Shown one piece after another: positions 8,547-61,171 of a stretch of 64,000 nucleotides of DNA (positions are counted from its first letter, which is position 1; each line of letters begins with the position of its first letter). The DNA is from Myxococcota bacterium (GTDB lineage Bacteria; Myxococcota_A; UBA796; GCA-2862545). The position numbers were made by a program, and so were the translations under genes. The DNA lies in the NCBI GenBank assembly GCA_039208735.1, contig JBCCQY010000010.1:1-64000 (forward strand), in the 5' to 3' direction. A model generated the notes under the pieces. The model made no database searches. It saw only the letters and a program-made list of their open reading frames with translations, and was not told the origin of the DNA.

Positions 8547-9775
8547 GGGGCGGTCGCCCTCACGACGGCCAAAATGGTCCGCGAGCCGATTCCGTGCGTG
8601 CCGGCGAAGGCTTCGATCGTCTGAAAGGGCCGTTGCTTCACGATCTGCGCCACACCCGGCGCATGGATGCCCGCCGCATCGAGCGCATCCTTAGGGGCCT
8701 GGTTTACGAAGCGAAGCGCACGAGAAGCCTCTTCAACCGTGAGCACCACACCATCAACCCTGACCTTGGCGTCGTCGCCGACCCCTGGCGCGAACGTCGT
8801 CACTCCGGGCAGCTCACCCTCCCGTGCCAACGTCCGGTGGGCCTCGTTCCAGATCGACTGGGTAACCCCCACGCCGCCAAGCCCTACCAGCAACAGGGAA
8901 ACGAGCGTGACGCCAACACTCCCAAACACCCACCACCATCCTGACGGCGCGTCGTGGGCCGGCTCGAGCACTGGAGGCTGGTTTCGGCTCCAAAGCGTTC
9001 GCGAAAGGGTATCGGGTGTGCTCGCAAGCCAGCTTTGAAGCGCCTCCAGCACGGCTCGCGCGGTGGGGGGAGGCCGCTTTCCGTTCGGCGCGAGTAGCCG
9101 CATGACCAATTCATCGAGGGCGAGCGGAACGGCGGTTGGTCGACGGCGCTCCCCTTCGAGCATGCGTCGGAGCAACTGGCCAAGCGCTCGGAGGTCTTCG
9201 GCAATCGTGGCGTGATCTGCGCGAATCAACCCATCGTCGAGGAGGCGAGGCACCACGCGGCCTTCTTCGGTGACCAATCCCACCCGAATCGGAGCGATGG
9301 CACCGTGCGCGAGACCCGCCGAGTGCAACGCCACCAATGCTCCAGATACGCCGATCCCGACCTCAACCGCCCGCCGAGGCTCCAGAGGTCGACCATCGGC
9401 CACGAGGTTCGCCACCGTTTGGTCAGGAGGCGGCTCTGTGACGAGGAATCCTTCGGCCGCATCCGTGCCGTAATCGATCACGCGCTGCAGATTCGCGTGG
9501 CGAATGTGCGTCCGACGGGCGGCCGCGCGCAAGAACGCCAATTCGTCTCGGACCGACGCCCCGCCGAGGTCCTCGTGTTCGAACGGGCGCATCCAGACTG
9601 CGGTGAGCCGCGACCCGGGCTCGCGATGGGCTTGAACGATCGGACCTCGATGACCGCGGCCCACGACCGACCCCAGTCGATAGTGACCGCTGTGCTGACC
9701 CTCGACCCGTTCGGCAATAGCCGGACGTTCGCTACCTGGGCCGTGGCCAAAGGCACCGCGATCGGTCTCGGTCAT
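8543..9775 (-). CDS. Membrane-anchored Ser/Thr pseudokinase with C-terminal helix-hairpin-helix (ComEA/PsbU-like) domain
   Basis: Kinase-like N-terminus (YRLGSVVGRG, HANLQRVIDYG, FLVTE) with degenerate catalytic motifs (HGAIAP for HRDIKP, DDG for DFG, no VAIK Lys); TM segment WWWVFGSVGVTLVSLLLVGLGGVGV; C-terminal VNQA...IVKQRPFQTIEAF...GIG. Stop overlaps the nupC start (ATGA). Confidence 0.75.
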   Translation of the reverse strand: MTETDRGAFGHGPGSERPAIAERVEGQHSGHYRLGSVVGRGHRGPIVQAHREPGSRLTAVWMRPFEHEDLGGASVRDELAFLRAAARRTHIRHANLQRVIDYGTDAAEGFLVTEPPPDQTVANLVADGRPLEPRRAVEVGIGVSGALVALHSAGLAHGAIAPIRVGLVTEEGRVVPRLLDDGLIRADHATIAEDLRALGQLLRRMLEGERRRPTAVPLALDELVMRLLAPNGKRPPPTARAVLEALQSWLASTPDTLSRTLWSRNQPPVLEPAHDAPSGWWWVFGSVGVTLVSLLLVGLGGVGVTQSIWNEAHRTLAREGELPGVTTFAPGVGDDAKVRVDGVVLTVEEASRALRFVNQAPKDALDAAGIHAPGVAQIVKQRPFQTIEAFAGTHGIGSRTILAVVRATAP

Positions 9776-9855
9776 TCATGCCCTCCGTCCGCGCGCCGAG
9801 ACGCCTATCACTCTTCCACCGGGACGACGCCAACTGGTTGCGTTACCGGTCGCGG

Positions 9856-10947
9856 ATGTCCGACGGCATCCTCGTCAGTCAGACCCTCCGCGACTTGATC
9901 GCCGGGGGCTCAATCCAAGCTCTGATTCCCGTTCGGGACGATCAGATCCAGCCCTCGAGCCTGGACCTGCGACTCGGCGCGAACCTCTGGCAACTCCAGT
10001 GCAGCTTCCTGCCCGGTGAAACCGGAATCCAGCGCAGGCTGGGCCAGCTGGCCACCGCGTCCCACCGCCTCGACCGAGACCACCCCATCGTGTTGCATCG
10101 GGGTGGGGTGTACCTCGCCGAACTGGAAGAGGTGGTGGAACTCCCTGCCGATGTCTGGGGACGAGGAAATCCCAAAAGCAGCACCGGTCGTCTCGACGTG
10201 TTCGTACGGCTCCTGTGCGAGCGCGGCCACGCGTTCGACACAGTGCCCGCGGGCTACCAAGGGCGTCTCTTCCTCGAGATCACTCCCCAATCGTTCCATG
10301 TCGCGGTACGTCGCGGAGATTGCTTAGGGCAACTTCGCCTGGGTCGGGGTCTCCCTGGTCTTTCGGTCGAAGCCCTTGCCCACCACCAAGCCGAAAGCCC
10401 GTTGTGCATTTGGTCCGACGGCACGGCTGCGCCGATCGACGCACGCCCCCCAAGCATCATCCTTTCGGTCGAACTCGAGCGCGCCGACGACGGGCCCATC
10501 GGCTACATCGCCCGCCGCCACATGCCGCCCATCGACCTGCAGCAACGCGGGCTGCCCATCGACCGCTACTGGGTTCCCTTGGGCCCAGCAAGCGATGGCC
10601 AGGTGCTCGAGCCAGAACAGTTCTACATCTTCGCCACGCGAGAACGCCTGCGCATCCCCCCAGACCTCTGCGCAGAACTCGTGCCCTTCGATGCCACCAA
10701 AGGTGAGCTTCGCACTCACTATGCAGGATTCATCGACTCGGGCTTTGGCTGGGACGAATCTGATCCACGGGCAGGGGCCAAGCTCGTCCTGGAAATCCGC
10801 ACGCATGACGTGCCATTCCTCCTCGAACATGGACAGCCGCTGTTCCGCATCGAATTCGTTCGAAACGAAGCGCGCCCCGACACGGTGTATGGCCGAGGCT
10901 CGAACTACCAGATGCAGGGATTGAAACTGGCTAAACAGTTCGGCTAA
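9856..10947 (+). CDS. dcd: dCTP deaminase, long two-domain type (dUTPase-like fold)
   Basis: QIQPSSLDLRLG, NPKSSTGRLDVFVRL, GELRTHYAGFIDSGFG, HDVPFLLEHGQ and SNYQMQGLKLAKQF motifs. Start re-picked to ATG 9856. Confidence 0.9.
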   Translation: MSDGILVSQTLRDLIAGGSIQALIPVRDDQIQPSSLDLRLGANLWQLQCSFLPGETGIQRRLGQLATASHRLDRDHPIVLHRGGVYLAELEEVVELPADVWGRGNPKSSTGRLDVFVRLLCERGHAFDTVPAGYQGRLFLEITPQSFHVAVRRGDCLGQLRLGRGLPGLSVEALAHHQAESPLCIWSDGTAAPIDARPPSIILSVELERADDGPIGYIARRHMPPIDLQQRGLPIDRYWVPLGPASDGQVLEPEQFYIFATRERLRIPPDLCAELVPFDATKGELRTHYAGFIDSGFGWDESDPRAGAKLVLEIRTHDVPFLLEHGQPLFRIEFVRNEARPDTVYGRGSNYQMQGLKLAKQFG

Positions 10948-34409: not shown

Positions 34410-35411
34410 GTGTTGCGGATTGCCCAGGTTGTCGTACTCATCGCCATCGTCGTGGCCAGCGCCTGGTGGCTGGTGCAAGACCTCGACTGGGCGGTGGTCA
34501 GCGCGACCGTGGCGAGCGCCAATCCCCTCTACCTGCTCGGCGTCGTGCTCCTGTTGGGGGTCAACCATGTGGCGCGCTCCTTGCGCATCGGTGCCTTGAT
34601 CGAAGCGCCGATCGGCAATTGGGACCTCTTGCGCATTTCGGCCGTGGCCTTCCTCGCCATCCAGCTGATTCCTTTTCGGCTTGGAGAGTTCGTTCGCCCT
34701 CAACTTCTCGTGCGCCATGGCGTGCCGTTTGGCGAAGGACTGGGCGCGATTGCCGTCGACCGAGTGCTCGACATCCTCATGCTGCTCGGTCTGATGGGCA
34801 TCGTGGCGTTCGTCGTGCCGCTGCCGGCTAACGCTATCGAGGTCAACGGCATCGATGTTGTGGCCGCGGGTCAGCGAGCCAGCGCCGTGGCGGTGACCAT
34901 CGCGGGGCTGGGAATGGGCGCGTTGGCCGTAGCCGGGCGTCCCATCCAAGCGTGGGTGTCGACCTTGCCCTGGATGGGACCAACGGCGGGACGTCTCGTG
35001 TCGGGGCTGGTCGACAGCTTTCAGCGCCTGGGCCATCGGCCCGCCTCGGGCTTCATCGCCCTGGCGTGGTCGATGCTGTCCTGGACCTCGACCATTGCGC
35101 TCGTGTGGGCCGCTCAGCATGCGTTTCCCGCCATCCCGACCGCCTTGACCGTCAGTTTGGTTCTTTGGACCTCGATCATCACTGCGATGTCAGCCGTGCA
35201 TACGCCCGGGTTCTTCGGGACGTTCGAAGCGGCCAGCGTGGCCGCGTTGGCCTTGTTCGGTACGGACCCGACCACGGCGAAAGCCTTTGCCTTGGTCTTT
35301 CACCTGGTCATGTTCGCGTTTGCCGTCGCGATTGCGGTGGGCTCGATGCTGTCGATGCGTCTATCGTTCGACGATCTTCGGCCCCCCAATCCTCAATCGA
35401 GCCCCTTGTAG
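34410..35411 (+). CDS. Lysylphosphatidylglycerol synthase TM / flippase-like membrane protein (UPF0104)
   Basis: IPFRLGEFVRP, VDRVLD and TPGFFGTFEAA motifs; many TM helices; AGGAG SD before GTG 34410. Confidence 0.85.
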   Translation: MLRIAQVVVLIAIVVASAWWLVQDLDWAVVSATVASANPLYLLGVVLLLGVNHVARSLRIGALIEAPIGNWDLLRISAVAFLAIQLIPFRLGEFVRPQLLVRHGVPFGEGLGAIAVDRVLDILMLLGLMGIVAFVVPLPANAIEVNGIDVVAAGQRASAVAVTIAGLGMGALAVAGRPIQAWVSTLPWMGPTAGRLVSGLVDSFQRLGHRPASGFIALAWSMLSWTSTIALVWAAQHAFPAIPTALTVSLVLWTSIITAMSAVHTPGFFGTFEAASVAALALFGTDPTTAKAFALVFHLVMFAFAVAIAVGSMLSMRLSFDDLRPPNPQSSPL

Positions 35412-37192
35412 CCAAAGGCCACGGAAAGCCGTTCGTCGATCACAAGAAGCTTCTCGAAGCGAACCGGCTGGCCATCGATGGGCAAGGTGACCCGCACTGG
35501 AGCCGCGCCCTGGCTCAACGCCCCCGACTGCGCTCGCGTCGCCGCATTCTGCTCCCGCTGCGCGCCTGCTTGGAGCTTGGCGTTGGGCACCGGACGGCTC
35601 AACGTCTTGACGTGCCGCAAGCTGCCATCCGGCTTGCCCTTCTGCTTTGCGCCCTCGGGCAGGTAGACGGTCCAGGCAACGTAGGTCGTCGGGGCATCCA
35701 CCAGGGGAAGATCAGCCTCAAACCTGCCCTTACCCTTGCGATTCGGCGCTTGACCATTCTCTACGTACACCAGTTCAATGCCAAACGCAGCCAGTGACCC
35801 TTGGGCGGCCGCCGACCGAACGAGCGGCACGAGCAACTCGCCTTCGCCCGACAACGCAGGCTGGACGGCCCGGCCCGCGACGGACGCCGACCACAGCTCC
35901 GCCCCTTCGGGCAGCCGCGCCCGCAAGAATTGACGACGATTGTTGCGCACCTGGTACTTCACCGAAGACAGCCGGCGCCCATCGCTCGTGAACATCGTCT
36001 GGGCGTTGACCTGGTCCACCAGGGTGACCAACACGTCCACCTCGCGGTGTTCGCGAACTTCAAGGGGCAGCACCGCTTCGGTGCCGAAGTACTTGAAGCC
36101 GAGCAGCACGGGCTGTGTGGTCACACCTACGATGTTCCCCGGAAGCGTTCGCACATCGACGGGAACTGCACCGTCAATCGCTCCCGGTCGGATCTCAACG
36201 TTCGACAACGGCTGGACCCCCACAAATCCCTTCGACCGTTCAACCCCGAGGGGAGCGATGAGGGGGGCGGTGACAGAACCGTCTTCGAGCAACCGTTCGA
36301 GTTCGATCGTGAGCGCGTACTGCCCTTCCGCCGCGAAGTTCAGCGATGCGGTGAGCGTGCCAGACTCATCGACCGACCAGTCCTGAAGCCCGGCTCCTCG
36401 TACGTCGAGCACCGTCATGCCATCAGGAATGGCGGTGCGAAACCGATCCACGCCCGTAAACAAGATCGTGTGTTCGATGGTCGTGCGAGTCGTCAACAGC
36501 CCATCACCGACCCCCACCAAGGTGTGCACCTCGGCGTAGACTCGCGGATCGAGCTTTGCGGTCTCCTCGACCTCTCGCTTCCACATGACCTGCAAGGTGC
36601 CCACCGAAGGGAGCGAGGCCTCCACGATGCGGTTTCCGCCAAGCTTGCGGTCCGATTTCAGTTTGGCATTCGCCACCGTAAAGTCGAGATCTTCGCTCGA
36701 AGGAACCGAGAGGACCAATTCCGCGGCCCCCGCACTCATAAGGGGAAACGAAAACCCGGTGTTTCCACCCGATGTGGTAACGGCCGCCGCGAAGTCGATG
36801 TCCACGTCGAACGCCCCCCGGCGGTCCGTCACCAGGCGGTACTGCCCCCCATCGAGCACCACCGGAGCGGTCTGACCCCCGATCGTTGCTTCCCGAACCG
36901 CGACGGTGCCGGGGAGCAACGGGACGCGAATCCACCCGCCGTCCGTCCGCAGGTTCTGGACGCGGAACCGTCCCCGAAACACCGCCGAGGTAGGCTCGCC
37001 GTCGTCCAACACCACGCGACCGTTGTAGCGCGCCTGAGCGAGGGCGAAATCCTGCGGAGGCTTCGGATCAGGGGTTCGATCCTTCGTGGCCTCGTACAAC
37101 TTGAGGAACTCTTCGAGCCCCATGGTGACTTGTTCAGGCGCGGGCTGTGCAGTCGCCACGCCCAGCCATGCGCCAATCAGTGCGAGAATCAT
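35393..37192 (-). CDS. Hypothetical secreted beta-rich protein (paralogue of the upstream gene)
   Basis: Signal peptide MILALIGAWLGVATA; ATGA overlap with the upstream gene; GGAGG SD. Confidence 0.82.
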   Translation of the reverse strand: MILALIGAWLGVATAQPAPEQVTMGLEEFLKLYEATKDRTPDPKPPQDFALAQARYNGRVVLDDGEPTSAVFRGRFRVQNLRTDGGWIRVPLLPGTVAVREATIGGQTAPVVLDGGQYRLVTDRRGAFDVDIDFAAAVTTSGGNTGFSFPLMSAGAAELVLSVPSSEDLDFTVANAKLKSDRKLGGNRIVEASLPSVGTLQVMWKREVEETAKLDPRVYAEVHTLVGVGDGLLTTRTTIEHTILFTGVDRFRTAIPDGMTVLDVRGAGLQDWSVDESGTLTASLNFAAEGQYALTIELERLLEDGSVTAPLIAPLGVERSKGFVGVQPLSNVEIRPGAIDGAVPVDVRTLPGNIVGVTTQPVLLGFKYFGTEAVLPLEVREHREVDVLVTLVDQVNAQTMFTSDGRRLSSVKYQVRNNRRQFLRARLPEGAELWSASVAGRAVQPALSGEGELLVPLVRSAAAQGSLAAFGIELVYVENGQAPNRKGKGRFEADLPLVDAPTTYVAWTVYLPEGAKQKGKPDGSLRHVKTLSRPVPNAKLQAGAQREQNAATRAQSGALSQGAAPVRVTLPIDGQPVRFEKLLVIDERLSVAFGYKGLD

Positions 37193-39339
37193 GGGTTCCT
37201 CCTGGGTTTCCTGACACACAAGGTCAGGGTTGGGGTTTCGTTTGCCGGCAGCAAAACGCGTTGGAATCGGACTTCAGTCCCCGACAATGGCACGAGGACC
37301 GACGCTGTCGTGGCCTGCACAATGAGGGGCGGGAGAGGGGCCTCGGCCGGCTCCGCCTTGGGCATCCGTTCCGTGCGGGTCGCGGGAGCCCCCGTGGTGG
37401 TCGACAGGTCGCTCAGCTTCTGCCGAATGTCGGTGTTCTGCGTTTGCTGAACGACGTCTTCTTCGGCGGCGATGCGTTCGAGCCGATCGCCAATCGCCAG
37501 AGCCGATTCATAGGATCGGCGGGCATTTTTGTAGTCGCCCTTTGCCAGATACTCGTCGGCCTCGTCGACGGCCTGTCGTTGTTCAATGAGATCTCGTTCT
37601 GCACGGGCTCGGGCCAGCGACTTGAGGCGTCGGGTGGCGGCCTTCTCGGCTTGCGTGACCTCCGACGCCTCCTCTTCGCTGGGCCCCTGCACCACTGCGA
37701 GGTTGGAGCGCAAACGGCTCACATCGGCGTTGTCAGCCCCGATCGCATCGAGCTGGTCGACATACTGCTGACTTAGGTCGAACCGGTTGTCGAGCCACGC
37801 GTCTACAGCTCCCTGCAGCAGGGCATCCGCTTGGCTGGCTCGGCCATCTCCGTCCCGAAAGCCGTAGTTAATCCCGTTGCCTTCGGTGAACTCGTCGACC
37901 ACACCTTGCTTGCCGATCTCCACGCGTGGATGAACCCCCGGGGGCAACCCCAGACGCGCCCGATGCACCGCGACCGGCGCGTCATAGGCCGGTAGGGCCA
38001 CCACCATTTCGCCGCGCTTGGGCCAGGGCTCCGTGGTGCCGAGATAGGCCAGCTCGACCGGAAACGACAGGGACCCCTGCACACTCTGTACGGACCGGGC
38101 AAGGGGCACGAGCACCTGTCCGTCGTCGAGTTCCGTCACCAAGGCGGTCTTGCCCTTGACCCGCGCGCTGACGAGCCGCATCCCAGGGGGCGGACGCACG
38201 GTCAGAAAGGCGCCGCGATCGTTACGAACGGCCAGTCGCGACCGCAGAAGCAGGCCCCCCGATGCACTGGTCGCCACCTCGGACTCGATCACGTCGATGA
38301 CGGTAGGGGGCTGGTCCACCAGCGTGGTTCGCAGGAGCTGCAGCCTCGCGCGAGCCGCCTGGCTCCCGAGGTAGGCGGCGGTGGGTGCACCATCGACGAG
38401 TCCACGCGCCCACGGCGGCAGGGCCGACGCCACCACCGGGGTCATTCCTATTGGAGCGGGGAGAACTTCACGGTCGGTGTCTCGGGCAATTTGAAGGGCC
38501 GTCGTCTCGCGAAAGATTCCCTGCAACGCGGGTAGTGACACGCTCACCTGCGCGTCCGCCCCCGGTGGCAAATCGCTCGTCCACGTCGCTTGCAAATCCA
38601 CCAAGCTGCGCTCGGGACGGGCAAGCGTGACCACGACACGATTGCCCTGCACCTGCAGACCCGCCATCTGGTCCCCTTCGAGTTCGAGGTCCGCAGGCAC
38701 CTGGGCCATGGTGAACACCACCTGCTTCACCGCCCCACGGGCCACTCGAAACCGAAGTCGCGCCTTCGCGGCCAAGGACGCATCCCGCACGGTCAATCCC
38801 ACGGCGGACTCCCCGAGGACCACGGTCCCTTGTGCCTGACGGGGTGGAGGGGTGGCTTGCAACGTCGTCCGCGGCCCGACCCACCAAGTGTTGGCCTTCA
38901 CCTTCGGCGCATTGGTCACGTAGGCCGTGCCCACCACGGTGAGCGCTGCGCCGGCGGGGGTCTGCAAGACCGACGTCCGGGGTGGAACGAAGCTCCGAAC
39001 TCGCAATTCCGCCGCCCCATCGACAGGAAACGCCGCCACCCACGCGTCGCCTTGAAGGGTCACCGGAACGTCCTTGCCATCAACCGTCACCCGATCCAGC
39101 GTGACCTGACGAGGAGCCACGGGGACAATGAGGTAGCCATCCCGTGGCGCGACGACCGGATTCGTCACATCGAGCAACCACCGTTGGGTGTCGAGCGAGG
39201 CCGTGCCCGGCAAGACCATCGGAGGCGGCGGCGGTGAGACCGTCGTTGAGTCGTCTGGAAAGAGCAATGGCCAACGACGCTTCTCGAGCCGCACTTCTGC
39301 GGCTTCGGCAAGCGCCATGACCATGCAAAGTCCCCACAT
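37189..39339 (-). CDS. Hypothetical secreted protein with TPR-like/coiled insertion
   Basis: Signal-like N-terminus; GGAGG SD; shares C-terminal motifs with 35393-37192. Confidence 0.8.
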   Translation of the reverse strand: MWGLCMVMALAEAAEVRLEKRRWPLLFPDDSTTVSPPPPPMVLPGTASLDTQRWLLDVTNPVVAPRDGYLIVPVAPRQVTLDRVTVDGKDVPVTLQGDAWVAAFPVDGAAELRVRSFVPPRTSVLQTPAGAALTVVGTAYVTNAPKVKANTWWVGPRTTLQATPPPRQAQGTVVLGESAVGLTVRDASLAAKARLRFRVARGAVKQVVFTMAQVPADLELEGDQMAGLQVQGNRVVVTLARPERSLVDLQATWTSDLPPGADAQVSVSLPALQGIFRETTALQIARDTDREVLPAPIGMTPVVASALPPWARGLVDGAPTAAYLGSQAARARLQLLRTTLVDQPPTVIDVIESEVATSASGGLLLRSRLAVRNDRGAFLTVRPPPGMRLVSARVKGKTALVTELDDGQVLVPLARSVQSVQGSLSFPVELAYLGTTEPWPKRGEMVVALPAYDAPVAVHRARLGLPPGVHPRVEIGKQGVVDEFTEGNGINYGFRDGDGRASQADALLQGAVDAWLDNRFDLSQQYVDQLDAIGADNADVSRLRSNLAVVQGPSEEEASEVTQAEKAATRRLKSLARARAERDLIEQRQAVDEADEYLAKGDYKNARRSYESALAIGDRLERIAAEEDVVQQTQNTDIRQKLSDLSTTTGAPATRTERMPKAEPAEAPLPPLIVQATTASVLVPLSGTEVRFQRVLLPANETPTLTLCVRKPRRNP

Positions 39340-39433: not shown

Positions 39434-39970
39434 TTACAGGTAGGGCTCCCATTCTGGGGGCGCGTCTCCGACGACCATGCCGCGCCGACCGAGCTGCAAC
39501 GCAGACGGTTCCCGTGGCGTTTCACGCAACGGCATGCCGGCCTCGTCGGGCGTCTGATTGCCTTTGCGGCGATTGCACGCCGGACAGGCGGTCACCACAT
39601 TGGACCATTCGGTTCGGCCCCCACGCGAGCGGGGCTGGATGTGGTCGATGGTGAGCTGCGCCGACGTGCCTTCCTGACCGCAATAGCCACACGCATATCC
39701 ATCACGTAGAAGGACGTTGCGCCGCGTGGGCGGGACGACCTGGGGCAGTCGGTGCATCCAGCCAGGCACCCGGATGACGGCGGGAATGGGGAATTCTGCG
39801 TGAGCGGTGCGAATCGTGCGCTCATAGTACTCGAGCACTTCGACACGGTCACCGAGGTCGAGACACACCGCACGTCGCCAGCCAATCGCTCGTAAGGGCC
39901 TGAACGCCTTGTCGAGAAGCAAGGCGCGACACAACTCCAGCGGAAGGATGGAGACCACCACAGCAGACAC
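39434..39970 (-). CDS. HNH endonuclease (small Zn-finger type)
   Basis: RRNVLLRDGYACGYCG, LTIDHIQPRSRGG and NVVTACPACNRRKG motifs. Start uncertain. Confidence 0.92.
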   Translation of the reverse strand: MSAVVVSILPLELCRALLLDKAFRPLRAIGWRRAVCLDLGDRVEVLEYYERTIRTAHAEFPIPAVIRVPGWMHRLPQVVPPTRRNVLLRDGYACGYCGQEGTSAQLTIDHIQPRSRGGRTEWSNVVTACPACNRRKGNQTPDEAGMPLRETPREPSALQLGRRGMVVGDAPPEWEPYL

Positions 39971-39999: not shown

Positions 40000-41265
40000 G
40001 TGAACGGAACCCAGCTCCCCGAAATCGTGACTCCGGTCCCCGGCCCAGAATCCGTGGCCCGCATCGACGTGCTCGCACGCCACGAATGCCCTGCCATCAC
40101 CGCGCGCCGGGCCCGACGGGCCGAGCACCTTGGGACAGCAAATGACGATCCGGTGGTCTGGGACGAGGCCGTAGGGTCGAACATCCGCGACGTCGACGGA
40201 AATCGATTCGTGGACTGGTTGTCCGGCTTCGGGGTCACCCTCGTCGGCCATCGGCATCCTACGGTGGTCGCAGCCGCCCAAGCGCAAGCGGACAAGTTGC
40301 CCCACGCGATGGGCGACGCCTGGCCCGACCAGTCCCGCATCCGATTGCTGGAACGGCTCGCCGCCTTCGCCCCCGACCCCTTGTCGGTCATCGTGCTGGG
40401 GCTTTCGGGGTCCGATGCCATCGATGCCGCGGTGAAAACCGCCCGATTGGCCACCGGTCGCGCCGGGGTTCTCACCTTCGAAGGCGGCTACCATGGCTTG
40501 GCTTTGGGTGTGGTGGGCCTTCAAAGCGCACGGCCCCAGTTCACCGAGCCGTTTGCCGACATCGTGCATCCCCACGTTCATCGATTGCCCCTCGGTGCGT
40601 CGCCGCACGACGTCGAGGCGCTCTTGCAGCACGGGGAGATCGGGCTCGTGCTGGGTGAACCGATGCAGGGTCGCGGCGGGTTTCGGGAGGCTCCGCAGGG
40701 ATTTTGGGCCGAAACCGCGGCCATCGCTCGTCGACACGGTGCCTTGTTTGCCTTCGACGAAGTGCTGACCGGGATGGGACGCACCGGCGTGCCGTTCGCC
40801 TGTACCGATGAAGGGGTCATCCCCGACCTCCTTTGCGTAGGCAAAGCACTCGCTGGAGGATGGCCTCTGTCGGCATGCATCGGAACCCCCGAGGCCATGG
40901 CCGCGTGGGGAGCGAGTCAGGGCGAGGCCATCCATACGCAGACCTTCCTCGGTCATCCGGTAGGATGCGCCGCCGCGCTCGGCGTCTTTGAGCTGTTCGA
41001 CCAGGGCTTACTCGACGCGATTCAAGCTCGATCCCGCGCCCTCGACGACCGGTTCGAGGGACTTCGGGGACGGGGCCTCATGCGCGCCTTGGCCCTCCGA
41101 CCAGGCAGTGATGCCCTCGCAGTGAGCCGACAGCTCCTGCAGGAGGGGCATCTCATCCTGCCGGCCGACGCCGAGTCGCTGCAGATCACGCCCGCCGTGA
41201 CGTTGTCGGATGCCCAAATCGACCACTTCGCGGGTCGTCTTGAAGGGTTGGGAGCACTGTTGTGA
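40000..41265 (+). CDS. Class-III PLP aminotransferase (GABA/ornithine AT family)
   Basis: DVDGNRFVD, SGSDAIDAAVK, GGYHG, EPMQGRGG, FDEVLTGMGRTG, PDLLCVGK, HTQTFLGHP. Confidence 0.93.
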   Translation: MNGTQLPEIVTPVPGPESVARIDVLARHECPAITARRARRAEHLGTANDDPVVWDEAVGSNIRDVDGNRFVDWLSGFGVTLVGHRHPTVVAAAQAQADKLPHAMGDAWPDQSRIRLLERLAAFAPDPLSVIVLGLSGSDAIDAAVKTARLATGRAGVLTFEGGYHGLALGVVGLQSARPQFTEPFADIVHPHVHRLPLGASPHDVEALLQHGEIGLVLGEPMQGRGGFREAPQGFWAETAAIARRHGALFAFDEVLTGMGRTGVPFACTDEGVIPDLLCVGKALAGGWPLSACIGTPEAMAAWGASQGEAIHTQTFLGHPVGCAAALGVFELFDQGLLDAIQARSRALDDRFEGLRGRGLMRALALRPGSDALAVSRQLLQEGHLILPADAESLQITPAVTLSDAQIDHFAGRLEGLGALL

Positions 41266-42272
41266 ACTGGACTGGCCCTGCTCTTGCGCTCGCCGAGCGC
41301 ATCCTTGCCTTCATGGAGGCGTCACTGAAAGGAGAGGTGCCCGAACCCTTCGAAGCGTTGGCGCTCGATATCCACGCGTTCCAAACCGAGCGGGCGCCGG
41401 TCGTCGCGGCGCTGCGTCCCGACCGCGTGGACCACTGGACCCAGATCCCTGCGGTGCCGGTTGGCTTGTTCAAGGACCTTCCGGTGGGAACCCTCCAGGC
41501 GGACGAACCAGCCACGGTCTTCCGCACGTCAGGCACGACCGGCGGAGGTCGTGGGGTCCATCGGATTCGGAGCACCGCCTTGTATGACCAAGGTGCATTG
41601 GCGTGGGCTCGACGTTGTGTACCAGGTGCGCCGGCCCGTATCGTGGCCCTCCTCGACGACGCCCGGCAGGTGCCCGACGCCTCGCTTTCGCACATGGTTG
41701 CGCAGTTCGGCGAGGCCACCTGGACCGTAGACAACGGCGTGCTCGACGTGGCCGCAACGCAGCAAGCGACGCTGGGCGAGGCGGTATTCGTCACCACGAC
41801 AGCCTTCGCCATGGCCGAGTACCTCGACAGTGGGCCACCCCCATTGCCCCCCGGCTCGGTGGTGATGGTGACCGGCGGCTTCAAGGGACGGGTGCATCGG
41901 CTCGAAGGCGCATCCCTCTACCGCGCCATCCGGGAACGTCTGGCCCCCGCGCGACTGGTCACAGAATACGGCATGACCGAGCTTTCGAGCCAACTCTGGG
42001 GGACTCCCCAAACGGCTTACGCCCCGCCCCCATGGCTCAAGGTGCTCGCGGTGAACCCCGTGACCGGAGAGGTCCTGCCGGCCGGTACCGAAGGGCAGCT
42101 CCGGTTTGTGGACCTTGCGAACCTCGACAGCACTATCGGTATCGAGACCATGGACGCCGGGGTCGTGCGGCCCGACGGCACCGTCGAGCTACGCGGTCGC
42201 TTGGCCGGCGCCCCCTCTCGAGGGTGTTCGCTCACGGTGGAGGAAGCATGGGGCCGCGCCTCGAACGCGTAG
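41262..42272 (+). CDS. LuxE-like acyl-protein synthetase
   Basis: IPAVPVGLFK, FRTSGTTG (adenylation loop), TGGFKG, EYGMTELSSQ, DLANL, and C-terminal RGCS acylation Cys. GTGA overlap with the aminotransferase. Confidence 0.88.
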   Translation: MNWTGPALALAERILAFMEASLKGEVPEPFEALALDIHAFQTERAPVVAALRPDRVDHWTQIPAVPVGLFKDLPVGTLQADEPATVFRTSGTTGGGRGVHRIRSTALYDQGALAWARRCVPGAPARIVALLDDARQVPDASLSHMVAQFGEATWTVDNGVLDVAATQQATLGEAVFVTTTAFAMAEYLDSGPPPLPPGSVVMVTGGFKGRVHRLEGASLYRAIRERLAPARLVTEYGMTELSSQLWGTPQTAYAPPPWLKVLAVNPVTGEVLPAGTEGQLRFVDLANLDSTIGIETMDAGVVRPDGTVELRGRLAGAPSRGCSLTVEEAWGRASNA

Positions 42273-43243
42273 TGGCGTGGCTTGAGGCCCTGCACCACTT
42301 CGACCCGGCCCCGCGCTGTCCGCATTTGTCGGCGCAGGGCGCCCGTGCGGCGTGGGAAGCCGCGCTGGCCTCGCTGACCCCCGAAGCCCTCACTCGGGCC
42401 GTGACGCGTCCAGGGGAGCCCTACGACCGTGCGGTGATGGTCGTGGCGCGTACCGTCTTTACCGCTCCCCTCGAATGGGCGGCCGTGCTCCTCGCTCGGG
42501 GGACCGAACTGACCCTCAAGCCCTCGTCCGCCGATGCTGGATTTGCAGAGGAACTCGTGCAAATGGCCCAGGCGCAAGGCCTCCCTCTCTTTGCGACCTC
42601 CGACCGCGACATCGTTGGCCAGTTGCCTCTCGTCGTGGTCATGGGAACCGATGAAACGGTCGATCAGGTGCGTGCAGCCGCGGCTCCAGACGCCCGTGTC
42701 CTCGGATTTGGCCATCGTTTCGGGGCCGCGTACCTCACGACCGCAGAGGGCTTTGCCGCAATCGGCCCTGACCTTGCTCTTCACGACGGCCTTGGCTGCA
42801 TGTCACCCGCGATGGTCTTTACCGACTGGCCAGAAGACGAGGCCACCGCTGCCTTGGCGCAATCCTGGCGTGCGATCGACGCCCAGTGGCCGAGCGGCCC
42901 CATCGACCCCATTGCGGGCGCGCAAATCCGCCAGCGTGAGGCATTGGCCCGCGTACTGGGTCAGGTCAGCAAGGACCGGGGGTGGTCCGTTCACGCCCTG
43001 CCGCGCGACCGGTTCGCTCCGGGAGCCCTCCCGCGCAGCGTGGTCGTCCACGCGATGAGCCACCGCGAACACGTCGAAACGGTGTTTCGAGACCACGAAA
43101 AGCAGCTATCGACGGTAGGTACCGACGACCCTCACCTCAGCGTTCCCGACTCGGCACGGGTCTGTCGCCCTGGCGAAATGCAACGACCGCCACTGGTGCG
43201 TTTCCACGATGGGGTCGATTGGCTCGGTGCGACACTCCGTTGA
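42248..43243 (+). CDS. LuxC-like acyl-CoA/acyl-protein reductase
   Basis: LKPSS, MGTDETV, GFGHRFG, HDGLGCMSP (catalytic Cys), GEMQRPP...HDG. True start taken as ATG 42248 inside track ORF 41603-43243. Confidence 0.85.
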   Translation: MGPRLERVVAWLEALHHFDPAPRCPHLSAQGARAAWEAALASLTPEALTRAVTRPGEPYDRAVMVVARTVFTAPLEWAAVLLARGTELTLKPSSADAGFAEELVQMAQAQGLPLFATSDRDIVGQLPLVVVMGTDETVDQVRAAAAPDARVLGFGHRFGAAYLTTAEGFAAIGPDLALHDGLGCMSPAMVFTDWPEDEATAALAQSWRAIDAQWPSGPIDPIAGAQIRQREALARVLGQVSKDRGWSVHALPRDRFAPGALPRSVVVHAMSHREHVETVFRDHEKQLSTVGTDDPHLSVPDSARVCRPGEMQRPPLVRFHDGVDWLGATLR

Positions 43244-43297: not shown

Positions 43298-43371
43298 TGG
43301 GCCCGCCAGGACTCGAACCTGGGCACTGCCGGGTATGAGCCGGCTGCTCTGACCAACTGAGCTACAGGCCC
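43298..43371 (-). tRNA. tRNA with CAT anticodon, most likely tRNA-Ile2 (lysidine); CCA not encoded
   Basis: GGGCCTG/CGGGCCC acceptor stem, TAGCTCAGTTGG D-arm, GCCGG-CTCATAC-CCGGC anticodon arm, GGTTCGAGTCC T-arm. Paired G1:C72 and C4/C5 acceptor bases fit Ile2 rather than initiator Met. Confidence 0.93.
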
Positions 43372-55918: not shown

Positions 55919-56063
55919 GGCACTACCATAGGCCAAGCGTAGACGGATTCGCGACTCGGTTTGCGCCTGATGCCGAAAGGCCCAACCTATCACGATCACC
56001 CCATGAAAGCGTGGGGTATGCTGCGCGAGCGCGGCCAGGATTGGCTGACAGTACGGGAGACGA

Positions 56064-59000
56064 ATGACGCCCCGACGCTTAGCGATCGGCATCGATGTGG
56101 GTTCCACCACCGTCAAAGCGGTGGTCTGTGACCGCGACACCCTCGAAATCGTCTGGCAGGACTACAAGCGGCACGAGACGCGGCAGCCCGAGATGGTTCA
56201 GGAGTTCCTGGTGCGCATCGGCGATGCGTTTCCCCACGCCGAAGACCTTCGGGTGTTCTGCACCGGGTCCGGTTCGGGGCCACTCGCCAAGCCCATCGGC
56301 GCCAAGTTCGTGCAGGAAGTCAACGCCGTCACACTTGCCGTGGAACGGCTGCACCCCAACGTGGGCAGCGTCGTCGAACTGGGTGGGCAGGATGCCAAGA
56401 TCATCATGTTCCGCGAGCAGCAGGGCCCAGATGGCAAGGTCGAGAAGACCGCGATCACCTCGATGAACGACAAGTGTGCGTCGGGGACCGGAGCCACCAT
56501 CGACAAATGCATGCTCAAGGTGGGCATGGAGCCGTCGGTGATTGGCAATCTGCGTTTCGACCCCACGCGGCTGCACCACGTTGCCGCGAAGTGTGGTGTG
56601 TTCGCCGAAACCGATATCGTAAACCTCGTCAAATCGGGCATTCCGAGTGACGAAATCATGAACAGTCTGGCCGACGCCATCGTGCACCAGAACCTGTCGG
56701 TGCTCACGCGCGGCAACACCCTGCGCGACGAGGTGCTGCTGCTCGGGGGACCCAACAAGTATCTGCCCTTCCTCGTCACCTGCTGGCGCATGCGCATTCG
56801 CGAAAGCTGGGAGTCCCGCGGCTACGACTATCCGAAGGACCGCCCCATCGAGGAGCTGGTCTATACCCCTGACAACGCCGAGTATTATGCGGCGTTTGGC
56901 GCGGTGCTCTACGGGATTACTGACGCAGCGGCCAAACTCGAAGGCCAGTACCTCGGCCTCAACGGGCTTCGCGACTACATCGCGAACGGTCGTTCGGCAC
57001 GCCTTGGCGATTCTGCGGCCGGACCGTTGGTCGAAACCCAGGACGAACTCGACGCGTTCACCGCCGAATACACCATTCCGAAGTTCGAGGCTCGGGAGTT
57101 CAAGAAAGGCGAGGTCGTCCGTGGCGTCATCGGGCTCGACGGTGGCTCGACCTCATCGAAGGCGGTGCTCGTCGACTACGAGGATGGGGAGGTCGTCTAC
57201 AAGGCGTACACCCTGTCGAAGGGCAATCCCATCCAGGACACCAAGGACATCCTGGCCGAAATCAAGGGATACGTCGAGTCTTTTGGGGCTTCGCTTGAGT
57301 GTATGGGCTTCGGGGCAACCGGCTATGCGGCCGACGTGCTCGAGGAGTCCGTTCGTGCCGACGTCAACATCGTCGAGACCGTCGCCCATATGCAGAGCGC
57401 GGTTCGCTACGTACCTGACGCCGACGTGGTCTGTGACATCGGCGGACAGGACATCAAGGTCTTGTTCCTCCGCGAAAACGAGAGCGGGGGCCGTGATGTC
57501 AAAGACTTCCGCCTGTCGAACCAGTGTTCTGCAGGCAACGGAATGCTCCTGCAGGCGATGGCCGACCAGTTCGGCGTGCCCCTCCAGGAGTACGCTTCCA
57601 CCGCGTTCTCAGCCGGCTTGGCGCCCAAGTTCTCCTACGGCTGCGCGGTGTTCCTCGACGCCGACCGCGTGAACTTCCAAAAGGAAGGCTTCCAGAAGGC
57701 CGAGATGCTCGCGGGGCTCGCCCAGGTGCTGCCCAAGAACGTGTGGCAATACGTCGTTCAGGTGCCCCGGCTCGCCGAGTTCGGTCGGGTCTACGTCCTT
57801 CAGGGAGGCACCCAGCGCAACCTGGCCGCGGTCAAGGCCCAGGTCGACTACATCAAGGACCGCGTGCCCAACGCCAAGGTCGTGGTCCATCCGCACTGCG
57901 GGGAAGCGGGGGCCATCGGCGCGGCCATGGAAACGCTTCGTGTCGTCAAGAAGCGCGGGGAAAGCACCTTCATCGGCATCGATCAGGCCATCGACCTCGC
58001 GTACTCCACCAAGAACGACGAGTCGACGGTTTGCCATTTCTGCCCCAACCTCTGCAGCCGCACCTTCATCGACACGGAAACGCCGGACGGGCGTACATCG
58101 CGCTACATCTCGGGCTTTTCCTGTGAAAAGGGCACGGTCGAGAGCAAGGATGCGCTGAAGGCCCTCCAGAAGGAGCGGAACGCAACGCGCAAGCAGTTCC
58201 CCAACCTCGTCGAGTACGAATCCAAGCTGGCATTCCAGCACTTCCGCGAGCCTGCGCCACTGCCCCACGCCGGTTCGAGCAAAAACGACGTCCACGTGAG
58301 GCGTTTGTCGTTCCGCCGGGTGGTTCGCAAAGCCATCCAGCGCGGCTTCAAGCGGAGCAATGTCGACCTTACGAAGGTAAAAATTGGCATCCCGCGCGTG
58401 CTCAATCTCTACACGGTGGCGCCGTTCGTTCGCACGTACTTCGAGACCCTCGGCATGCCGAAGCAGAACATCGTGTTCTCGACCCCCACCTCCGAAGAGA
58501 TGTGGCAGGAGGGCGGCCGGTACGGCTCGATCGACCCGTGCTACCCGTCAAAGGTCATTCAGGCGCACGTCCATGAGCTGCTGTTCCACGCCCACAAGGA
58601 CGAGCGAAAGCGTCGGGGCCCCCTCGACTACATCTTCTTCCCCTGCATCACCCACATTCCTACATGGATGGACGGCGTGATGGACAGCACCAGCTGCACC
58701 ATCGTGGCCGGAGCTCCGAACGTGACCAAGGCCGCGTTCACCAAGGAAATCGACTTCTTCGCCCGCGAAGGCATCGAATTCCTCGACCCTTCACTCAACT
58801 TCACCGAGCCTAACCTCCTCAAGAAGCAGCTCTTCGACGGGTTCGGGCCTGTGCTCGGCATCACCGAAGACGAAAGCGACTGGGCGGTCGACGAAGCCTT
58901 CAAGGCGATGGACGACTTCGCGGAGCGCATGCAGAAGGCGGGTCGCGAAATCCTCGACCGGGTGAAGCGTGAAAACAGGGTCGCCATCTTGATGATCGGC

Positions 59001-59537
59001 CGCCCCTACCACATGGACCCTGGCCTCAACCACGGGATTCCCGAGGAATTCCAGGTTCGTGGGTACCCGATCCTCTCGATTCGCAGCCTGCCGCAGCAGC
59101 GCGAATGGTGGCAGCAGTACTTTGGGGCCGACGACCCGCTCGACATTCGCGACGTCTGGCCCGAGAACTTCTCGACGAACTCCGCGCAGAAGGTCTGGGC
59201 GGCAAGGCTCGCCTCGCGCCACCCGAACCTCGCGCTGCTCGATTTGTCGAGCTTCAAGTGCGGCCACGATGCGCCGACCTACGGCATCATCGACAACATC
59301 GTGAAAGCGGCCAACGTCCCCTATGCGGCGTTGCATGACCTCGACGCGAACAAGCCCGGCGGATCCATCCTCATCCGCGTCCGGACGTACGTGCACAAGC
59401 TGAAGCTCGTCGAGGACGAACTCCGCGAGAAAGCCGAGGCCCACGCCGAACTCGACCGCTTGCTCGAGGCCAAACGAGCCGAACTCAAGGCCCAAATCCT
59501 GGCCCGCCGCCGCGAACTCATCAATGCTGCCAAGTAG
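56064..59537 (+). CDS. CoA-substrate activase with two BadF/BcrAD ATPase domains plus DUF2229-like reductase domain (PlsA/Ger-like)
   Basis: GIDVGSTT, GGQDAK, NDKCASGTG, KCGVFAE; second copy GLDGGSTS, GGQDIK, NQCSAGNG, GCAVF; CHFCPNLC...FSCE; GIPRVLN, PCYPSK, GRPYH, SFKCGHD. Confidence 0.9.
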   Translation: MTPRRLAIGIDVGSTTVKAVVCDRDTLEIVWQDYKRHETRQPEMVQEFLVRIGDAFPHAEDLRVFCTGSGSGPLAKPIGAKFVQEVNAVTLAVERLHPNVGSVVELGGQDAKIIMFREQQGPDGKVEKTAITSMNDKCASGTGATIDKCMLKVGMEPSVIGNLRFDPTRLHHVAAKCGVFAETDIVNLVKSGIPSDEIMNSLADAIVHQNLSVLTRGNTLRDEVLLLGGPNKYLPFLVTCWRMRIRESWESRGYDYPKDRPIEELVYTPDNAEYYAAFGAVLYGITDAAAKLEGQYLGLNGLRDYIANGRSARLGDSAAGPLVETQDELDAFTAEYTIPKFEAREFKKGEVVRGVIGLDGGSTSSKAVLVDYEDGEVVYKAYTLSKGNPIQDTKDILAEIKGYVESFGASLECMGFGATGYAADVLEESVRADVNIVETVAHMQSAVRYVPDADVVCDIGGQDIKVLFLRENESGGRDVKDFRLSNQCSAGNGMLLQAMADQFGVPLQEYASTAFSAGLAPKFSYGCAVFLDADRVNFQKEGFQKAEMLAGLAQVLPKNVWQYVVQVPRLAEFGRVYVLQGGTQRNLAAVKAQVDYIKDRVPNAKVVVHPHCGEAGAIGAAMETLRVVKKRGESTFIGIDQAIDLAYSTKNDESTVCHFCPNLCSRTFIDTETPDGRTSRYISGFSCEKGTVESKDALKALQKERNATRKQFPNLVEYESKLAFQHFREPAPLPHAGSSKNDVHVRRLSFRRVVRKAIQRGFKRSNVDLTKVKIGIPRVLNLYTVAPFVRTYFETLGMPKQNIVFSTPTSEEMWQEGGRYGSIDPCYPSKVIQAHVHELLFHAHKDERKRRGPLDYIFFPCITHIPTWMDGVMDSTSCTIVAGAPNVTKAAFTKEIDFFAREGIEFLDPSLNFTEPNLLKKQLFDGFGPVLGITEDESDWAVDEAFKAMDDFAERMQKAGREILDRVKRENRVAILMIGRPYHMDPGLNHGIPEEFQVRGYPILSIRSLPQQREWWQQYFGADDPLDIRDVWPENFSTNSAQKVWAARLASRHPNLALLDLSSFKCGHDAPTYGIIDNIVKAANVPYAALHDLDANKPGGSILIRVRTYVHKLKLVEDELREKAEAHAELDRLLEAKRAELKAQILARRRELINAAK

Positions 59538-59572
59538 ACTTTCCCGACCCGTGAGATGGATGGAGCGCCCCC

Positions 59573-61171
59573 ATGATGTCCGATGAAGCCGATCTGGACC
59601 CCAGCGAATCGCTGAACGACGCCGAACGCGAAGAACTCGAACGGGAACTCGCGGGATTCCGTGCCGAGCAGGTCAAGGCGCTTGGCCTCGACCGGCCGCA
59701 GTACACCGAGCAGGTCTCGGCCGAATTCTGGGCGGATCAGCGTCCCCACACCACCATCTTGGTCTCGGGACTTTCGCTGGCCCACGACCACCTCGTGACC
59801 GCGGCGCTCGCCGGGATTGGCTACAAAGTGGCCACCCTCGACGTTCCTGACGTTGAGTCCCTCCAGGTGGGTAAGGAATTCGGAAACCGGGGGCAGTGCA
59901 GCCCGACGTACTTCACGGTCGGCAACCTGGTAAAGACGCTCATCCACAAGCGCGACGTCGAAGGCGAGTCGGTCGAAGACATTGTCAACAGCTACGTCTT
60001 CCTGACGGCCGGGGGCTGCGGCCCGTGCCGGTTCGGCATGTACGTCACGGAGTACCGCAAGGCCTTACGCGACGCGGGCTTTGACGGCTTCCGGGTCATG
60101 ACCTTCCAGATGGCGGGCGGCATCAACCAGGCCACGGGCAAGGAACTCGGTCTCAAGATCGACCCCACCTTCGCCTGGCAGATCGTCCGGTCGCTCATCG
60201 CAGGGGATGTGCTCAACCTCATGGGCTACCGTCTGCGGCCCTACGAAGTGGTGCCCGGCAGCACCAACGAAGCCATTGAGCAGTGCAAGGCCGTGTTGTC
60301 GCACACGCTGCGGAACCGTGGCCGCATCTCGCTCGCCATGCTGAAATGCCGCCGCATCCTTGGCAAGGTCAAGGTCGACCGCACCCAGCCCAAGCCGGTG
60401 GTCAGCCTCATCGGTGAGTTCTGGGCCATGACCACCGAAGGCGACGGCAACTACCACATGCAGAAGTTCCTCGAGAAGGAGGGCGCCGAGGTCGACATCC
60501 AGGGCATCACGAACTGGTTGTTGTTCCTGTTGTGGGAAGCCGGGTACGACACCGAGGTCCGGCAGGAGCTGCGCAACGAAGACGAAGCGCGCAAGGGCCT
60601 CAAGGGCAAGGACGCGACCAAGAAGATCTGGGGCGTCAAGGCCGGCTACTACGCGGTTCGGGCCATCTTCCAGACCTACGCGAACATCGTCGGGCTGCAC
60701 AACTACCACCTCCCCGACATGCACGAAATCGCTCGAATCTCGAAGGAGCACTACAGCAACGACGTCCGCGGTGGCGAAGGCCACATGGAAGTCGGCAAGC
60801 TCATCCACTTTGTGGTCGACAAGGTCAACCACATGACGGTGTCGGTCAAGCCGTTTGGCTGCATGCCGAGTTCGGGCGTTTCGGACGGCGTGCAAAGCCG
60901 CGTGCTGGGGGACTACCCCGAGGCCATCTTCGTCGCGATCGAGACCACCGGCGACCAGGAAGTCAACGCTCACTCGCGCGTGCAGATGCAGATGTTCAAG
61001 GCCCGTCAGCGGGCCCAGGAAGAGTTCGAGCGCGCACTCGAAGAGACGGGCCTCACCAAAGAGGAGTTCAAGCGGCGGGTTGCCAAATCTTGGCGATTCC
61101 GCAACAGCTTCGTGCGGCCGAAGCACCGGGTGGCGGGCCTCGCCGCCAACCTCGTCTACGCGGTGGCGTGA
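59573..61171 (+). CDS. 2-hydroxyacyl-CoA dehydratase-like Fe-S subunit (PlsR-like)
   Basis: GQCSPTYFTVG, GGCGPCRFGMY, IGEFWA, GGEG and KPFGCMPS motifs; directly downstream of the activase. Confidence 0.87.
   Translation: MMSDEADLDPSESLNDAEREELERELAGFRAEQVKALGLDRPQYTEQVSAEFWADQRPHTTILVSGLSLAHDHLVTAALAGIGYKVATLDVPDVESLQVGKEFGNRGQCSPTYFTVGNLVKTLIHKRDVEGESVEDIVNSYVFLTAGGCGPCRFGMYVTEYRKALRDAGFDGFRVMTFQMAGGINQATGKELGLKIDPTFAWQIVRSLIAGDVLNLMGYRLRPYEVVPGSTNEAIEQCKAVLSHTLRNRGRISLAMLKCRRILGKVKVDRTQPKPVVSLIGEFWAMTTEGDGNYHMQKFLEKEGAEVDIQGITNWLLFLLWEAGYDTEVRQELRNEDEARKGLKGKDATKKIWGVKAGYYAVRAIFQTYANIVGLHNYHLPDMHEIARISKEHYSNDVRGGEGHMEVGKLIHFVVDKVNHMTVSVKPFGCMPSSGVSDGVQSRVLGDYPEAIFVAIETTGDQEVNAHSRVQMQMFKARQRAQEEFERALEETGLTKEEFKRRVAKSWRFRNSFVRPKHRVAGLAANLVYAVA

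Follow-up and report, generated by a model that had tools for sequence, protein, structure and literature searches.

The published account of queuosine synthesis treats the pathway as completely worked out, and QueC and QueF as invariable steps of it (PMC11570991): QueE makes 7-carboxy-7-deazaguanine (CDG), QueC and QueF take CDG via preQ0 to preQ1, and Tgt inserts preQ1 (PMC11570991; 10.64898/2026.04.15.718813). LuxE and LuxC, as described for P. phosphoreum, reduce an acid via an acyl-AMP and two Cys thioesters; the catalytic residues are K238, R355 and C364 of LuxE and C296 of LuxC, and in LuxC an oligomerisation domain (residues 134–151 and 454–488) closes off the long hydrophobic cleft (PMC9157457). 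Here we describe an operon of a class III aminotransferase gene, a LuxE-like gene and a LuxC-like gene in a 64,000-nucleotide stretch of a Myxococcota bacterium (assembly GCA_039208735.1, contig JBCCQY010000010.1, positions 1–64,000; the whole stretch is called the window). With a probability of roughly 80%, we propose from comparative sequence analysis that this trio would convert CDG to 7-formyl-7-deazaguanine and then to preQ1, bypassing the nitrile and replacing QueC and QueF. The literature covered, which was mostly outside subscription journals and excluded supplements, yielded no link of LuxE or LuxC to queuosine and no QueC/QueF-free route.

The three genes lie on the forward strand:

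40000–41265, + strand: class III aminotransferase gene (421 aa; PF00202; K282 codon at 40843–40845)
41262–42272, + strand: LuxE-like acyl-protein synthetase gene (336 aa; C322 codon at 42225–42227)
42248–43243, + strand: short LuxC-like acyl-protein reductase gene of the aldehyde dehydrogenase (ALDH) fold (331 aa; C184 codon at 42797–42799)

The first two overlap in the sequence GTGA (41262–41265, 4 bp) and the last two by 25 bp (42248–42272), in agreement with a preliminary description of the window, which had reported three overlapping co-directional genes. In what follows, G000 and L001 denote the genome and the locus of the window, and other G and L numbers denote compared genomes and loci.

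The distribution of queuosine genes was surveyed in 301 Myxococcota genomes. A LuxE-like gene, mostly single-copy, was matched in 248 of them; with matches weaker than E 1e-4 (G149, G269 and G289) scored as negative, the phylum divides into 245 LuxE-positive and 56 LuxE-negative genomes. QueC was detected in 6 of the former and 49 of the latter (over cut-off, 4 and 47), and true QueF in 0/245 and 43/56. The QueF count comprises 43 of 69 PF14489 matches, three of the 43 having been read for the catalytic Cys. Set aside were 13 mid-scoring matches from the window's order, all in LuxE-positive genomes (12 were translated, all of them lacking the catalytic Cys motif) and 13 weak matches (two translated, both FolE-like). 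QueE was found in 243 LuxE-positive and 51 LuxE-negative genomes using a 15-sequence profile, which replaced a survey with TIGR04322 (181/301, most at threshold) because that model was too insensitive. Among 80 sampled LuxE-positive genomes, about every third one, Tgt was present in all and a QueD-family gene in 75. LuxE-positive genomes therefore combine QueE and Tgt with a pathway hole at QueC and QueF, and the trio is predicted to fill this CDG-to-preQ1 step.

The aminotransferase follows the same division. In chosen genomes, an orthologous copy was present in 37 of 38 LuxE-positive genomes and in none of 32 that were QueC-positive and LuxE-negative; it also occurs in three of seven genomes lacking both the LuxE-like gene and QueC, which suggests assembly gaps there. 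Switches are seen within families: G137 and G284 carry queC and queF and lack both a family-level LuxE-like gene and the orthologous aminotransferase, and their relatives in the same families carry the LuxE-like gene. Two of the four full QueC exceptions sit in dpdA/dpdB DNA-modification islands. These 7-deazaguanine modification islands, L188 (G191:C41) and L189 (G246:C20), have their own queC, queE and folE2.

Besides FolE and a divergent QueE, the genome of the window (completeness 92.7%) encodes QueA, QueG and two Tgt, these last three families scoring over their cut-offs; neither QueC nor QueF was matched in it. Checks for QueA and QueG were confined to this genome. Its two main Tgt have intact DxC and GGLSVGE pocket motifs, which are linked to preQ1 specificity. 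Two full Tgt genes are carried by many Myxococcota; G000 also has a divergent third Tgt-like gene, located next to one for an FmrO-type methyltransferase (G000:C35:50778–52196), and a second, divergent QueA-like gene (G000:C59:14921–15838).

Physical links to que genes were found mostly in metagenomes, where a scan seeded with the G313 protein returned 79 further loci. In 15 of these, queE lies upstream of aminotransferase–luxE–luxC on the same strand, abutting in six; among the 16 loci that hold an orthologous aminotransferase and at least 1.5 kb of upstream sequence, 12 have queE. The aminotransferases of the queE-linked loci carry the signature of the window's protein, and the 15 loci are 44–88% identical. 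On another branch, queG is directly upstream in three loci (L347, L353 and L378). These three, together with L357 and L364, pair luxE–luxC with a class III aminotransferase of another subfamily (YHGD, QGEGG), suggesting independent recruitment. Finally, queD directly follows luxC in G313, the sole tight link among the genome loci, and in L314. Neither QueC nor QueF was matched at any of the 79 metagenome loci. A natural LuxE–LuxC fusion, an 853 aa open frame, is found downstream of queE and the aminotransferase in L340 (7947–10505).

Of 169 loci surrounding LuxE-like genes, 127 contain an aminotransferase gene as well as a LuxC-like gene, and the gene order nearly always matches that of the window; some of the loci counted repeat a genome and some stop at contig edges. 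The association is thus not due to chance, and the neighbourhood survey proposed in the preliminary description finds the aminotransferase co-conserved with luxE and luxC. Where it is not adjacent to luxE–luxC, it is located elsewhere in the same genome. The order recurs in Sorangium and Polyangium records, and the trio is kept in a 1.8-Mb genome (G094). Clustering of neighbours in Myxococcota revealed no fourth partner that recurs with the trio; the top clusters were housekeeping genes tied to single lineages. A luciferase-like monooxygenase cluster occurs near the operon in four loci; luxAB and luxD are otherwise not among the recurrent neighbours, and the annotated recurrent clusters include no acyl carrier, LuxD, condensing enzyme or exporter. 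The trio is a core function of Myxococcota, not a specialised fatty-amine cluster. In the phylum of a Verrucomicrobiae record (PVC), 6 of 151 genomes have a LuxE-like gene; four of them (G301, G398, G416 and G437) show orthologue-level aminotransferase matches, those of G313 are partial and at contig ends, and G344 has none. QueC over cut-off was found in none of the five LuxE-positive PVC genomes tested.

The LuxE-like protein taken alone scores 17.8 bits with Pfam LuxE (cut-off 24.9) and is also under the NCBIfam LuxE cut-off; it aligns along its length with P. phosphoreum LuxE, and a profile of 99 relatives has this protein (7xc6_E, E 6e-35) as its best match, far before other adenylating enzymes. 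It comprises an ANL N-domain without the C-subdomain and a C-terminal RGCS motif that holds C322. Residues K208, R313 and C322 align with K238, R355 and C364 of LuxE and are kept in 169, 165 and 167 of 169 relatives, which bears out the intact C-terminal Cys noted before. A Foldseek search with the predicted model gave weak ANL-family matches (TM about 0.5–0.6; ClxA, MatB and PaaK), with 7XC6 absent among the rows listed, and says nothing about the substrate. The protein is predicted to adenylate CDG.

The LuxC-like protein passes Pfam LuxC (PF05893; 46 bits, cut-off 21), a 76-sequence profile of its family matches 7xc6_A (E 3e-33), and its predicted model (pLDDT 97) superposes on 7xc6_A with a TM of 0.85. 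C184, which the preliminary description took for an intact catalytic Cys, indeed aligns with C296 of LuxC and is kept in all 144 relatives. The family profile skips LuxC residues of about 128–146 and ends near 450, so that most of 454–488 is absent; the tail after the HDG motif has a median of 12 aa across 120 LuxC-like loci, compared with about 44 in LuxC. Lacking the oligomerisation segments, the family does not appear to be a long-chain reductase.

The class III assignment of the aminotransferase made in the preliminary description is confirmed by PF00202 (E 2e-72) and by the pyridoxal phosphate (PLP) lysine K282, present in 147 of 147 relatives. The fold-type I features, a DE motif and the catalytic Lys, are present, and D253, K282 and T315 are conserved in the alignment of the 147 relatives. 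The best NCBIfam score is 221 bits against cut-offs of 372–850, none of the 25 best models listed reaches its cut-off, and by curated cut-offs and substrate residues the protein falls outside the GabT, ArgD and putrescine aminotransferase equivalogs. Its subfamily has a dedicated signature (YHGL, EPxQGRGG and W..GEAIHTxT). In GabT-type enzymes, substrate-residue roles are assigned to the HG-R/K and QG-E-GG motifs. The family has Leu167 (141/147) and Arg225 (145/147) in places occupied by Lys/Arg and Glu in putrescine aminotransferase and in a G000 paralogue; Trp303 is invariant and His312 near-invariant. Leu167, Arg225, Trp303 and His312 would fit a dedicated, uncharged and possibly aromatic substrate without identifying it. 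The window enzyme is predicted to be a 7-formyl-7-deazaguanine aminotransferase.

In the proposed route, the LuxE-like protein would adenylate the CDG carboxylate with ATP to CDG-AMP and load the acyl group onto its Cys322. From there, Cys184 of the LuxC-like protein would accept the acyl group, and reduction of the acyl-Cys184 with NAD(P)H as the predicted cofactor would release 7-formyl-7-deazaguanine. The PLP-dependent aminotransferase would then turn the aldehyde into the aminomethyl group of preQ1, drawing on a putative amino donor. The net change, COOH to CH2NH2, equals that made by QueC and QueF and counts in favour of this route; substrate, product and direction are predicted from the gene arrangement, families, catalytic residues, distribution and clustering observed.

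A sister branch bears on the substrate range of the family. Distant relatives on Azospirillum and Pantoea plasmids combine luxE–luxC with a short-chain dehydrogenase/reductase (SDR), and in Azospirillum with an ABC importer. A thiamine pyrophosphate (TPP) riboswitch precedes all three of these operons and 8 of 13 metagenome loci. The riboswitch loci (L172–L174, L352, L356, L358, L361, L366, L377, L385 and L390) contain the LuxE-like, LuxC-like and SDR genes, most with a ThiXYZ-like importer or thiD. Their branch nests in the same LuxE-like family tree as the trio proteins, and seven near-fixed columns distinguish it from the que-type proteins. No riboswitch was found at L001, for which about 240 bases upstream were covered, and no Rfam riboswitch at 12 queE- or queG-linked loci or nine others. 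The position of this branch behind TPP riboswitches points to small heteroaromatic acids as the probable substrates of the family as a whole. PCA, a pyrimidine acid, is described as an orphan thiamine breakdown product (PMC11223231), and the TPP-riboswitch luxE–luxC–SDR operons are candidates for salvage of an oxidised thiamine acid, which would give a function to OarX.

Four other explanations were weighed. The preliminary description had read the operon as a path from fatty acid to fatty aldehyde to fatty amine for a lipid, signal or antimicrobial. Its acid-to-aldehyde-to-amine chemistry is upheld by the families, the catalytic residues and the co-conserved aminotransferase, and a Leu after HG, in place of the Lys/Arg of putrescine- and GABA-type enzymes, would suit such an uncharged substrate; TabE/TabA and TamH are described as making dodecylamine by similar logic (10.1101/2025.08.11.669332). 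The fatty substrate fares worse. The mutual exclusion between the trio and QueC/QueF and the clustering with queE, queG and queD, which it leaves unexplained, indicate that it is probably wrong, the recurrent neighbours lack the accessory genes listed above, and the family is without the segments of the long LuxC cleft. Likewise, a near-universal, mostly single-copy set kept in a 1.8-Mb genome fits poorly with a lipid, signal or antimicrobial amine, and we regard this explanation as very unlikely. Use in thiamine salvage, with PCA reduced and aminated to aminomethylpyrimidine and hydrolysed by TenA to HMP, is suggested by the riboswitch-controlled branch of the same LuxE-like family, which is found with thiamine genes, and by the orphan status of PCA (PMC11223231). 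That branch, however, has an SDR instead of an aminotransferase and differs in the seven near-fixed columns; no scanned trio locus has a riboswitch, only 21 of the 80 sampled LuxE-positive genomes have TenA, and TenA is missing from G000, where a ThiC motif was matched. Thiamine salvage by the trio thus seems less likely still.

An unrelated housekeeping step from acid to amine, for another cofactor or an amino-acid derivative, would ascribe the QueC/QueF pattern to shared ancestry. Related genomes are indeed not independent, and in most Myxococcota the trio neighbours variable housekeeping genes; but the switches within families in G137 and G284, the lack of QueC also in the five PVC genomes tested and the three different que genes that abut the unit in separate branches speak against it, and we give it the least credence of all. 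The remaining alternative keeps the queuosine role and changes the order or product: amination after tRNA insertion, a CDG nucleoside or nucleotide as the acid, or the reverse breakdown or recycling of preQ1. The comparative evidence places the trio in the QueE-to-Tgt gap without fixing substrate form or direction, many genomes have two Tgt copies and G000 a divergent third one, and a QueD gap in the window's family, described below, hints at further variation of the pathway. Against this, ATP-driven adenylation makes the LuxE–LuxC pair reductive (PMC9157457), the two main Tgt of G000 retain their pocket motifs, and a catabolic preQ1 route leaves the loss of QueC and QueF unexplained. Such a variant is improbable, if the least so of the four.

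Several observations weigh against the proposed conversion of CDG to preQ1. In the window, the operon has no que gene as a neighbour. Only 8 of 209 genome loci (four lineages) place a que or folE gene near the unit, a number only moderately above a rough chance estimate of 1–2; the 15 queE-linked metagenome loci share one branch and count as about one event. The genomes surveyed are related, and the counts overstate their independence; the QueE profile was built from the same sample, with matches not individually checked. Two genomes break the pattern: G296 combines QueC with the LuxE-like gene and the orthologous aminotransferase, and its short contig shows no recognisable dpd gene; G278 has luxE–luxC and QueC without the aminotransferase. 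Moreover, canonical QueD is absent in G000, whose only candidate is an atypical PTPS-family gene (C12:59386–59751) in an unrelated cluster, without the Cys-x-His-Gly-His motif and between RibD_C and lysylphosphatidylglycerol-synthase-like genes. A PF01242 match is absent in five of the eight genomes of the same family (f1), one of them a single contig. These gaps leave the supply of CDG in the window's own family unexplained.

This QueD gap, shared by G000, G201, G096, G106, G151 and G181, all with QueE, is a possible second pathway hole. The order of the window also has a conserved Cys-less QueF-like protein, in which EFTFxGxxNQPDF replaces EFTxxCPxTGQPDF (L196–L207, 12 genomes, for example G271:C2:952635–952862); it occurs in 13 LuxE-positive genomes of the order and was not found in G000. 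As a replacement of QueD it was rejected, because G096, G106 and G000 have neither protein and G131 and G276 have both.

Within the window, a Pfam scan of 48 proteins detected no luciferase or LuxD family, consistent with the lack of luxAB and luxD reported before, although small or mis-picked genes may escape the script that picked them; the same scan found no SDR or importer adjoining the operon. No promoter consensus was found, terminator-like sites were fewer than in shuffles, and no viral relative was found. The operon end is convergent with tRNA-Met(CAT) (43298–43371, − strand), and its start is divergent from an HNH endonuclease gene (39434–39970, − strand) at a distance of 29 bases; relatives of the latter occur near the operon in five loci. 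Beyond it, 35393–39339 (− strand) carries neighbouring genes for two large proteins, of 608 and 716 aa, that resemble each other in their C-terminal motifs and have no significant Pfam match. Farther away are a concentrative nucleoside transporter and a two-domain dCTP deaminase (7176–10944, 30 kb from the operon), and a BadF/BcrAD-type ATPase fused to DUF2229, of the CoA-enzyme activase type, followed by an unassigned 538-codon frame (56049–61168, + strand).

More broadly, we think it likely, with somewhat less confidence than in the conversion itself, that a nitrile-free route to preQ1 is the main one in Myxococcota and is present in other phyla. Non-luminous LuxE/LuxC would then be a general CoA-free reductase of heteroaromatic acids, working with an aminotransferase in queuosine synthesis and with an SDR in thiamine salvage, the luminescence fatty-acid reductase would be a specialised offshoot, and the window's family may hide a replacement of QueD. 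Genomes without QueC and QueF are read as salvage-dependent. If the proposal is true, about four fifths of the sampled Myxococcota make preQ1 by other chemistry, and pathway reconstructions that predict queuine suppliers need revision. It would also give a function to a large family labelled 'acyl-protein synthetase', 'acyl-CoA reductase (bioluminescence)' and 'GABA aminotransferase-like', and put a three-enzyme cascade from aryl acid to amine on offer.

Compared with described systems, the window pair has in common with the luminous LuxC–LuxE of P. phosphoreum (PDB 7XC6; PMC9157457) the two folds, an acyl-Cys relay independent of CoA, and the catalytic residues (Lys, Arg and two Cys). It differs in its LuxC-like protein (331 aa against 488, without the segments of the long-chain cleft) and in an operon that lacks luxAB and luxD, is coupled to an aminotransferase and belongs to the core gene set of a non-luminous phylum. 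The tambjamine systems TamA/TamH and TabE/TabA likewise proceed from an activated acid through an aldehyde to a primary amine with a reductase and an omega-transaminase (10.1101/2025.08.11.669332); as described there, they use an acyl carrier protein, a C12 chain and a specialised cluster, whereas the trio has no carrier and consists of core genes. The OarX-linked TPP-riboswitch operons (PMC11223231) contain a branch of the same LuxE-like and LuxC-like family, although LuxE is not mentioned in the main text of that report; they have an SDR and an importer where the trio has an aminotransferase, and an alcohol product is predicted. With QueC and QueF (PMC11570991), the trio is predicted to share the substrate CDG, the product preQ1 and the place in the pathway. 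ATP activation and NAD(P)H reduction through a Cys adduct are also predicted to be common to both. In QueF, this adduct is a thioimide. The folds are nevertheless unrelated, an aldehyde would replace the amide and nitrile intermediates so that preQ0 would not form, and the nitrogen would come via PLP from an amino donor, not from ammonia. The trio thus belongs to neither system: its proposed outcome makes it an analogue of QueC/QueF, and its predicted mechanism resembles that of LuxE–LuxC.

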